DNA of 20,709 nucleotides from Candidatus Thorarchaeota archaeon (GCA_016839605.1 JAEOTX010000215.1:1-20709); one strand, 5' to 3'; positions 14,357 through 16,318 are shown, counted from the stretch's first letter. Translations and numbers: made by a program. The notes: a model not told the origin generated them from the letters alone.

Positions 14357-16318
14357 ATGCCCATCTCTGCAGGAGGCAGCACAGGTGAGGCTTTGCCACT
14401 CGGTCATGAGGTCATTGCCGTCTTAGAGGCGGATGCAGTACATATTGTTCATGATGAGAGGTTTCTATACGCTGCCTGTAGAGACCTAACGGTAAGAGTC
14501 TGGTCAAAGGAAGACTGGCAATTAGTAGCGGAGCTTGGCGAGACAAGCTCGGAGCCCCTTGTAGTACATGTCGATGACGACCAAGTATATGCTACATGCG
14601 AGCGCCGCGTTTATGTCTGGAAGAAAGAAACATGGGGAATGACCGGATGGTTCGAGCTGACCTATCAAGCTGTCACATCCACACTTCAAGGTGACAGTTT
14701 CTATGTGGGAGCTCGTGATGGCAGATTGGTATCAATAAAGAAAGACACTCACGAAACCTCGAGCTGGCAACTCCATAAGTCTGACATCTCAACTCTATGG
14801 TCTGATGATAGAGTCATTCTAACAGGTAGCCGGAAGGAGGAGCCGAGAGCTTGGCTTCATAAGCCTAACACGGCGCCTACTGAGCTCGCAAGGCTGGACA
14901 AGAAGATACGCCCCACTGTCTTCGTTGGCAATTCTGATTATGTAATAATAGGAACTGAATCTGGAGAAATAGGAATTTGGGATAGAGTTGAGTGGCAGCT
15001 CATCAGGACTCTCCAAGATAAATCCTCGAACCCTGTAGTATCCATGTGGTCAAACAGCACGTTTCTTGTTGCGGCTATGAACTCAGGTCTAGTCTCAATA
15101 TGGGATCTCCTCAAAGGTAATGAGATGGGCCGATTCCTAATGGAAAATGAGAAGATAGGATATATTGAAGCAGACAATCTTCACGTATATGTGATTGGAA
15201 GCAGCGGAATCAAGGTCATTTCCCTGACTATCGGTGAGGTTCCTCTCGACTTGAGTATGTCAAACGAATCTCGATTTGGCGTCAGTCTACTGAGAACTTC
15301 TCCTTATGATGTACTCGAGTCTGTACTCGTATTTCAACGGCAGGGTGATGGGTACTTCGAAGAGGGAAATCATCAAGATGCAGTAGCCGCATACGAGAAG
15401 GCTTTGCAATATCTGATTGACAATACACATGCATTGCTGGAGGTCCCGGAGGAACGGCAGCAGCTCACAGAAGAGTTGAATGACCAACTGGGGAGATCTC
15501 TACTGAAGTCGAAAATACAAGAGCTAGGGCAGCTTACGGAACGGATTACAGAGATTTCTGCACAGATCGAGCCCGATACCCAGGTACGCCTTCAAGATGA
15601 TATGGTTGACAAACTATGGGATGAAACAGCCAGGGCCATCAAGGAGAGCCGAGTATTATCCGATGCTCAAGCGGGCAACATTCTCAGCTACCAACTGACT
15701 GATGCTGCTGATACGCTCGAGGCTGAACTCGGCGACGCCATGGCAAAGGTCACCATATACAGAGAAACGATCAATCAAGCAATTACCTTGACTCATGGGA
15801 TCATGAATGAATGGCGTTGGATGGAACGAAAGAAGACAAGCCTCAATGAGCGAAAGGCATTCTTAGAGGAGGCCATGGCAAAGATAAGCGAACGACTCAA
15901 AGAGGCGGAGCCTGGAAGTGAAGTGGAGTCAATACTAAGTGATGCACTCGACGAACACAGGCGTGTCTTCTCACAGATCAGCCGCATCATTGAAGCTACA
16001 GTGACTGATCCTAGGGATGAGCTTGTCAGTAAGGAAGAAGCTGCGGCAGCCATAGAGGGCCTTCTCAGGATATTGCCTAAACGTAGAGAAGCTATCGAGA
16101 AAATGACAGATACGAAGGAGCAGAAGGTCGAGACAGAGCGGCTCCAAGGTGCACTGCAACAGGCGCTTGCATCTGCTAAAAAGTTTAAGATGAAGGATGA
16201 GCAGAAAATCATCCAAGATCTGATAGATGGGATTGAACCTCCTAAGACAAAGAAGCGAGCCAAATCAACCAAGAAGAAGAAAGCTAAGACGGCGAGCAAG
16301 AAGACAAAGGCTAGCTAG
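14357..16318 (+). CDS. WD40 beta-propeller protein with MIT/TPR-like helical bundle, helical C-terminal region and Lys-rich tail
   Basis: About 7 WD-like blades (ACRDLTVRVWS, TCERRVYVWK, GARDGRLVSI, HKSDISTL..GSRKEEPRAW, GTESGEIGIWD, AMNSGLVSIWD, IGSSGIKVIS), then GDGYFEEGNHQDAVAAYEKALQYL...PEERQQL. Ends KTKKRAKSTKKKKAKTASKKTKAS. The true start may be TTG 14393 (GGTGAG RBS just upstream). Confidence 0.85.
   Translation: MPISAGGSTGEALPLGHEVIAVLEADAVHIVHDERFLYAACRDLTVRVWSKEDWQLVAELGETSSEPLVVHVDDDQVYATCERRVYVWKKETWGMTGWFELTYQAVTSTLQGDSFYVGARDGRLVSIKKDTHETSSWQLHKSDISTLWSDDRVILTGSRKEEPRAWLHKPNTAPTELARLDKKIRPTVFVGNSDYVIIGTESGEIGIWDRVEWQLIRTLQDKSSNPVVSMWSNSTFLVAAMNSGLVSIWDLLKGNEMGRFLMENEKIGYIEADNLHVYVIGSSGIKVISLTIGEVPLDLSMSNESRFGVSLLRTSPYDVLESVLVFQRQGDGYFEEGNHQDAVAAYEKALQYLIDNTHALLEVPEERQQLTEELNDQLGRSLLKSKIQELGQLTERITEISAQIEPDTQVRLQDDMVDKLWDETARAIKESRVLSDAQAGNILSYQLTDAADTLEAELGDAMAKVTIYRETINQAITLTHGIMNEWRWMERKKTSLNERKAFLEEAMAKISERLKEAEPGSEVESILSDALDEHRRVFSQISRIIEATVTDPRDELVSKEEAAAAIEGLLRILPKRREAIEKMTDTKEQKVETERLQGALQQALASAKKFKMKDEQKIIQDLIDGIEPPKTKKRAKSTKKKKAKTASKKTKAS

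Follow-up and report, generated by a model that had tools for sequence, protein, structure and literature searches.

A WD40 propeller and helical rod protein encoded opposite a tubulin-like operon in one family of Thorarchaeota

We analysed a 20,709-nucleotide stretch of DNA from a Candidatus Thorarchaeota archaeon (GCA_016839605.1 JAEOTX010000215.1:1-20709, hereafter the window), which is one contig of a 3.08-Mb genome that is 80% complete. The window carries a gene for a 653-residue protein whose modelled parts are a WD40 propeller, a helical rod and a basic tail, and the product is most likely a scaffold, possibly an accessory of a neighbouring tubulin-like system. The first-pass annotation, made from the sequence alone, had placed this gene opposite a tubulin-like operon, and that is the layout seen here: 202 bp separate it, head-to-head, from the gene for an 896-aa protein, behind which follow a GTPase matching PF00091 and a gene for a 361-aa protein. 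The locus comprises the following features.

14357-16318, + strand: WD40-helical gene (P0001), 653 aa; WD40 propeller, helical rod and basic tail.
14155-14356, no strand: divergent intergenic region of 202 bp between the WD40 gene and the first gene of the operon.
11464-14154, - strand: first gene of the operon, 896-aa all-helical protein (context).
10059-11444, - strand: 461-aa tubulin/FtsZ-family GTPase, Asg.Tub (PF00091, 74 bits; best solved relatives CetZ 4b46 and 3zid).
8954-10039, - strand: third gene of the operon, 361-aa helical protein without a family (context).

The WD40 gene begins at the first available ATG, an in-frame stop lies six codons upstream, and a genome scan found a single copy in its own genome. 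To judge from its sequence, the neighbouring GTPase fits the CetZ-like group named Asg.Tub by Santana-Molina et al. 2023 (PMC9871819), a paper that covers the GTPase group only, leaving aside the operon partners and the WD40 protein. Recent work on Asgard tubulins that form microtubules deals with other paralogues and makes no mention of the Asg.Tub system. The GTPase is 85-95% identical across the Thorarchaeota family and is also found in four other Asgard families sampled. Its 151 relatives come from records labelled Thor-, Hod-, Heimdall- and Hermodarchaeota, among them one with the annotation 'Tubulin-like protein CetZ'. The 896-aa protein, Asg.Tub and the 361-aa protein occur together in four other Asgard families, where the helical partners fall to 21-42% identity and the GTPase to 43-72%.

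AlphaFold2 models were built with the family alignment and reached a predicted local distance difference test score (pLDDT) of 84 over the full length and 85.6 over aa 300-630. They divide the product of the WD40 gene into five parts.

14399-15232, + strand: aa 15-292, seven-bladed WD40 beta-propeller; 28 modelled strands, pLDDT ~90.
15233-15301, + strand: aa 293-315, linker of low confidence, pLDDT <50 at 303-313, ending at the invariant SPYDVLE helix cap (315-321).
15302-15523, + strand: aa 316-389, first three-helix bundle; a TPR-like hairpin of helices 316-336 and 339-355 plus the first half of helix 364-404.
15524-16234, + strand: aa 390-626, remaining helical rod; at least two three-helix bundles (~aa 380-474 and 474-552) and a last helical unit, aa 559-626.
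16238-16315, + strand: aa 628-653, disordered polybasic tail; 13 Lys/Arg, isoelectric point 11.6, pLDDT 35-40.

The 28 modelled strands form seven four-stranded blades that close a ring, as expected of a WD40 beta-propeller and in line with the roughly seven WD blades counted in the first reading. The domain superposes on beta-TrCP1 with a VIA Z score of 32.7 (root-mean-square deviation, rmsd, 2.3 Å; 278 residues aligned), and its VIA matches to WDR61 (Z 32.5), KIF21A and LIS1 are as good; Foldseek returned Tako8, Fbw7 and beta-TrCP at E ~1e-18. Pfam, run on the whole protein, gave many beta-propeller families over aa 28-285, all below threshold, and found no AAA domain in the 653 residues, as had been stated beforehand. 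A seven-bladed WD40 propeller joined to a helical or coiled-coil element is also seen in the eukaryotic cytoskeletal adaptors katanin p80, LIS1, EML and coronin, and the propellers of LIS1 and KIF21A are among the top VIA matches. The adjoining tubulin-family gene is a further point of likeness, but the likeness as a whole is analogy only. The differences are that the propeller matches all WD40 proteins equally and that nothing in the helical part matches LisH or the C-terminal domain of katanin p80.

Beyond the linker, ten helices were modelled (316-336, 339-355, 364-404, 414-437, 442-491, 496-516, 522-549, 559-581, 586-609 and 613-626). Helix 364-404 has 41 residues, of which the second half is aligned to the opening helix of another three-helix match (model residues 76-180; 3anw_B, YlaN, Sec20 and the Tom1 GAT domain in VIA), while a third such match covers model residues 174-253 (7v6c_A, TorD and a designed heterodimer). 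The rod also aligns in VIA with spectrin fragments of two and three repeats, over 170-239 residues (Z 10.9 over 170 residues, model 6-178; Z 10.6 over 239 residues, model 4-255), with the caution that helical matches with Z below ~13 may mean a common arrangement only. Because of the 41-residue helix, the separate bundle matches and the extent of the spectrin alignments, the modelled helical region reads as a rod in which three-helix bundles follow one another and continuous helices connect them. Spectrin rods (alpha/beta-spectrin and the plectin plakin domain) are its best structural matches and share both the serial bundles and the continuous helices. They differ in that the rod has no Pfam or PDB sequence match to them, that its bundles span ~75-95 residues rather than ~106, and that the Z scores are those of any helical bundle; spectrin-like internal repeats are also missing, as a comparison of the four helical units found no sequence repeats beyond built-in segment overlaps. 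A Foldseek search of the helical model against the PDB gave no match at E < 0.03, and an ESM Atlas shape search gave template modelling (TM) scores of at most 0.39, mostly to TPR or uncharacterised proteins.

A propeller followed by helices is also the domain order of a protocoatomer-like membrane coat or tether, in which a beta-propeller precedes an alpha-solenoid. Propeller-solenoid proteins are said, in text that cites the work, to have been reported from thorarchaea by Zaremba-Niedzwiedzka and colleagues in 2017. Weak Pfam matches to the propellers of IFT140, WDR35, Nup120 and HPS5 would fit such a protein, and a preprint reports propeller-solenoid proteins in Thorarchaeia (bioRxiv 10.64898/2026.10.28.762692). 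The helices themselves tell against a coat: those of 41 and 50 residues match three-helix bundles and not stacked hairpins, and the C-terminal half is accordingly not modelled as an alpha-solenoid of stacked hairpins. Foldseek found no solenoid at E < 0.03 (best E 0.033, TM score at most 0.28), no solved coat protein was aligned across both domains in full-length VIA and Foldseek searches, of which VIA returned propellers only, and the protein carries no membrane-binding element. We regard a coat or tether as highly improbable.

The first bundle is the part that the first-pass annotation had read as a MIT-like three-helix bundle fused to the propeller; the strings it read in this way map to aa 317-385 (nt ~15299-15511). 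In the model, residues 314-389 (model 15-90) superpose on the MIT domain of Sulfolobus Vps4 (2w2u_B; Z 10.4, rmsd 1.9 Å, 72 of 74 residues aligned), on MITD1 (4a5x_B; Z 9.7, 2.0 Å, 71 of 73), on yeast Vps4 (2v6x_A; Z 9.6, 2.4 Å, 80 of 82) and on the katanin p60 N-domain (5lb7_B; Z 9.6, 1.6 Å, 76 of 78). Like the MIT domains of PF04212 (Vps4/CdvC, MITD1, spastin and the katanin p60 N-domain), the modelled unit has three antiparallel helices in ~75 residues, at 1.6-2.4 Å rmsd, and a TPR-like G-x-x-Y...A-x-x-x-Y-x-x-A pattern in helices 1 and 2. In the VIA list, these matches tie with spectrin repeats, the GGA1 GAT domain, designed three-helix miniproteins and TPR domains, that of FKBP52 included, and all of them lie under the Z level of ~13.

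In sequence, TPR leads. With the segment isolated, Pfam TPR_2 scores 25.0 bits (E 1.8e-5, cut-off 27) and MIT PF04212 16.6 bits (E 0.0088, cut-off 30), both below their cut-offs; in the whole protein TPR_2 matches at aa 326-352 with E 7.8e-4. Among 47 relatives searched one by one, TPR_11 was matched in 31, TPR_2 in 30 and MIT in 17 (best E 6.6e-4), again all below cut-off. A PDB profile search returned consensus TPR proteins at E 1e-7 or better (1.2e-4 with a longer profile) and the MIT domains of Vps4B/SKD1 at E ~0.5; the longer-profile alignment, over aa 322-370, falls on the last repeat and capping helix of the consensus TPR proteins, of which designed CTPR3 is an example and which are the best sequence match. 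Language-model features gave a lead in the same direction, the nearest clusters being all TPR (0.85). A MIT model run across the genome scored our protein second best in its own genome, at 14.9 bits (E 0.086). Its orthologues score 14-19 bits, within the range of MIT cross-matches inside ordinary TPR proteins of the same genomes, whereas the Vps4 MIT domains found in those genomes reach 26-55 bits. An hhalign comparison of the segment with 25 Asgard Vps4 MIT domains, drawn from 41 genomes, gave a non-significant 9% probability over 48 columns; a TPR control alignment gave 22%, likewise non-significant.

The noted resemblance of helices 1 and 2 to a single TPR fits the sequence scores, with TPR_2 at E 1.8e-5, just under its cut-off, and consensus TPR proteins as the best sequence match. 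The MIT pattern does not rise above what a TPR unit gives (16.6 against 25.0 bits). Of the propeller fused to a MIT-like bundle, what remains is a three-helix unit with the size and the fold of MIT domains, which no test separates from a TPR with a capping helix or from a generic bundle; in the profile and Foldseek check that had been suggested, TPR leads in sequence while neither family passes its cut-off (the segment, aa 316-389, stays short of 30 bits for MIT) and Foldseek is without a match at E < 0.03. A discrete MIT domain would end with its third helix and sit on a linker, whereas here helix 364-404 is twice as long, is shared with the next bundle, and belongs to a unit that is internal to the chain after the propeller. 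A TPR array (PF00515/PF07719) would hold at least three repeats, whereas a single unit was detected, scoring just under the Pfam cut-offs, and the helices that follow are long and lie in bundles. By sequence the segment leans to TPR, as one unit with a cap helix. Because the third helix continues into the second and third bundles, the modelled first bundle reads as a single TPR-like hairpin closed by a shared third helix, MIT-sized and not a discrete MIT domain.

A true MIT domain at aa 315-385 could bind an AAA ATPase or, in the ESCRT-III proteins of the genome, the C-terminal MIT-interacting motif (MIM) helices, and would then couple the filament to a membrane-remodelling or severing machinery. 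The components exist: of the two ESCRT-III genes in the genome, one lies on contig C22 beside a gene for Vps4 (405 aa, MIT 26.8 bits) and the other on C179, and the C-termini of both ESCRT-III proteins look MIM1-like by eye. The superposition on whole MIT domains, the rank of our protein in the MIT scan, the 17 members touched by the MIT model and the invariant polar residues carried by helices 2 and 3 of the bundle are further points in favour. They are countered by scores (14.9-19.4 bits) typical of TPR cross-matches and not of true Vps4 MIT domains, by the hhalign and PDB profile results, by the equal Z scores of spectrin, GAT, TPR and designed bundles, and by the 41-residue third helix that discrete MIT domains do not share with a following bundle. 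Moreover, neither ESCRT locus is near the WD40 gene, and the gene never adjoins ESCRT genes. The proposal that the protein couples the filament to ESCRT-III or an AAA ATPase is not supported, and we consider a true MIT domain improbable; as the link rests on a fold common to any three-helix bundle, it should be kept out of the annotation. In the Vps4/ESCRT-III locus on C22, a gene at 2047-3456 (- strand) abuts the 3' end of the ESCRT-III gene on the opposite strand; its product has 469 aa and carries a Cys4 zinc-ribbon motif near the N-terminus.

A word-indexed search recovered 220 homologues, nearly all of them 620-660 residues long and nearly all labelled Thorarchaeota or Promethearchaeota. 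Of the 24 other family genomes scanned, 18 hold a full-length orthologue. All 8 other genera are among them, each with a genome that is at least 92% complete; outside the Thorarchaeota family the genome scan gave WD40-level matches only. In an alignment of 47 sequences, conservation is strongest in propeller blades 1-4, which hold most invariant residues, and in four invariant motifs of the helical region: SPYDVLE (315-321), EVPEERQ (362-368), LNxRLGxALLK (374-384) and EWRWMER (485-491). A HMMER pass of aa 300-653 over 1.84 billion representatives returned 24 proteins, 22 of which are family members or fragments; the other two, of 1607 and 1055 aa, are multi-repeat proteins whose match is confined to aa 320-357. 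None of these 24 relatives is fused to an AAA or other extra domain.

The tail had been described as having 13 Lys/Arg in its last 24 residues, and this is exact (12 Lys, 1 Arg and no acidic residue). It is not a family-wide trait: among the 47 relatives, tails with 9-14 Lys/Arg in the last 24 are restricted to those at least 66% identical, and almost all other aligned relatives have acidic or neutral ends with 0-7 (P0059 has 8). From this distribution in the aligned sequences, the closest relatives gained the polybasic tail recently, and it lies outside the core function of the family.

The linkage to the operon is family-wide, as a synteny survey called for by the first reading confirmed. 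In all 17 family genomes whose flanks could be read, the WD40 gene faces the gene for the 896-aa protein; 15 of them have a gap of 200-360 bp, and the other two, G015 and G012, one of 2.5 kb. The linked orthologues span nine genera, with 46-54% identity between genera, and the WD40 gene and the first gene of the operon show similar divergence rates. In G015 (C49, 4336-6892) and at the same site in G012 (C21), two genomes of the same genus, the wider gap is a 2.5-kb island that holds a gene for a TATA-binding protein (161 aa, PF00352, E 1e-51) and small, unassigned open reading frames.

Because the gene stands head-to-head with the Asg.Tub operon in every family member examined, our preferred reading, held with about as much confidence as doubt, is that of a cytoplasmic, lineage-specific scaffold of one Thorarchaeota family, most likely an accessory or adaptor of the presumed Asg.Tub filament system. 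A seven-bladed propeller would be followed by a flexible linker and an elongated rod built of three-helix bundles in series. Protein-binding surfaces may be offered by the propeller and by the first bundle, which is highly conserved, the rod could act as a spacer or an oligomerisation element, and the whole would work as an accessory or adaptor of the filament presumably formed by the three-gene operon; in the proteins that have it, the polybasic tail may add electrostatic contact.

Several observations weigh against this. Every fold match of the helical part falls under the VIA level of Z ~13, and the packing of the bundles was derived from alignment ranges, not from coordinates. Alignments of the rod with the 896-aa and 361-aa proteins gave hhalign probabilities below 1%, so that no homology was detected between them. 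The TATA-binding protein island parts the WD40 gene from the operon in G015 and G012. A neighbourhood of ten genes is syntenic across the genera of the family, with the order FMN (flavin mononucleotide) dehydrogenase, acyl-CoA synthetase-like gene, operon, WD40 gene, TPR gene, small open reading frame and amino-acid kinase retained, and for this reason the adjacency may be plain inheritance. Finally, the three-gene operon is intact without the WD40 gene in four other Asgard families (G025, G035, G029 and G031), where the position is taken by nucleotidyltransferases, peptidases, or a transposase and a Ras-like GTPase; the WD40 gene is therefore at most an add-on to the operon.

These last points are what would be expected of a general WD40/helical scaffold that has no functional tie to the operon and whose head-to-head placement is an inherited gene order in one archaeal family. 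The flanking genes on both sides (FMN dehydrogenase and acyl-CoA synthetase-like; TPR protein and amino-acid kinase) keep their order across genera, the pair tolerates being split, and the intergenic region shares nothing across genera except the ribosome-binding site of the operon gene and a CTTAA ~33 nt before the WD40 ATG. Against it stand the pairing in all 17 genomes, over nine genera whose orthologues are merely 46-54% identical, and the similar rates at which the WD40 gene and the first gene of the operon diverge. We find this alternative credible, and somewhat less probable than the accessory or adaptor role.

A more specific form of that role would make the protein a dedicated, lineage-specific Asg.Tub-filament-associated factor, docked to the filament or to the 896-aa protein through its conserved propeller half or its first bundle, with the rod and tail as the connection to another structure. 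We hold this to be rather unlikely. Complex prediction with the GTPase alignment and aa 1-410 gave an ipSAE of 0.00 in both runs, made with no control runs alongside, and speaks neither for nor against such docking. If docking of this kind were true, the protein would be an archaeal analogue, of independent origin, of the eukaryotic WD40-type microtubule-associated proteins, and if it proved to be a partner of Asg.Tub, an archaeal tubulin-like filament would for the first time have a WD40-type accessory factor to its name. As the evidence stands, the protein counts as a scaffold at family level, still uncharacterised.

Two further neighbourhoods were observed. A 213-aa multi-TPR gene (16311-16952, - strand) converges on the WD40 gene with an 8-bp overlap at the 3' end, and occupies the same place in every family genome examined, at 38-83% identity, a linkage as tight as that of the operon. 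In G029 (C13, 3183-5038), which belongs to another Asgard family, the tubulin-like operon is immediately preceded by genes for a DDE transposase and a Ras-family small GTPase (PF00071, E 4e-43).

In the divergent intergenic region, a mirrored promoter motif was considered and rejected, the inverted repeat there being merely 10 nt long with 90% complementarity. No Shine-Dalgarno sequence precedes the ATG of the WD40 gene. The CTTAA at 14322-14326 is invariant in nine genera within intergenic sequence that is otherwise unalignable, and could serve as promoter box for a leaderless transcript.

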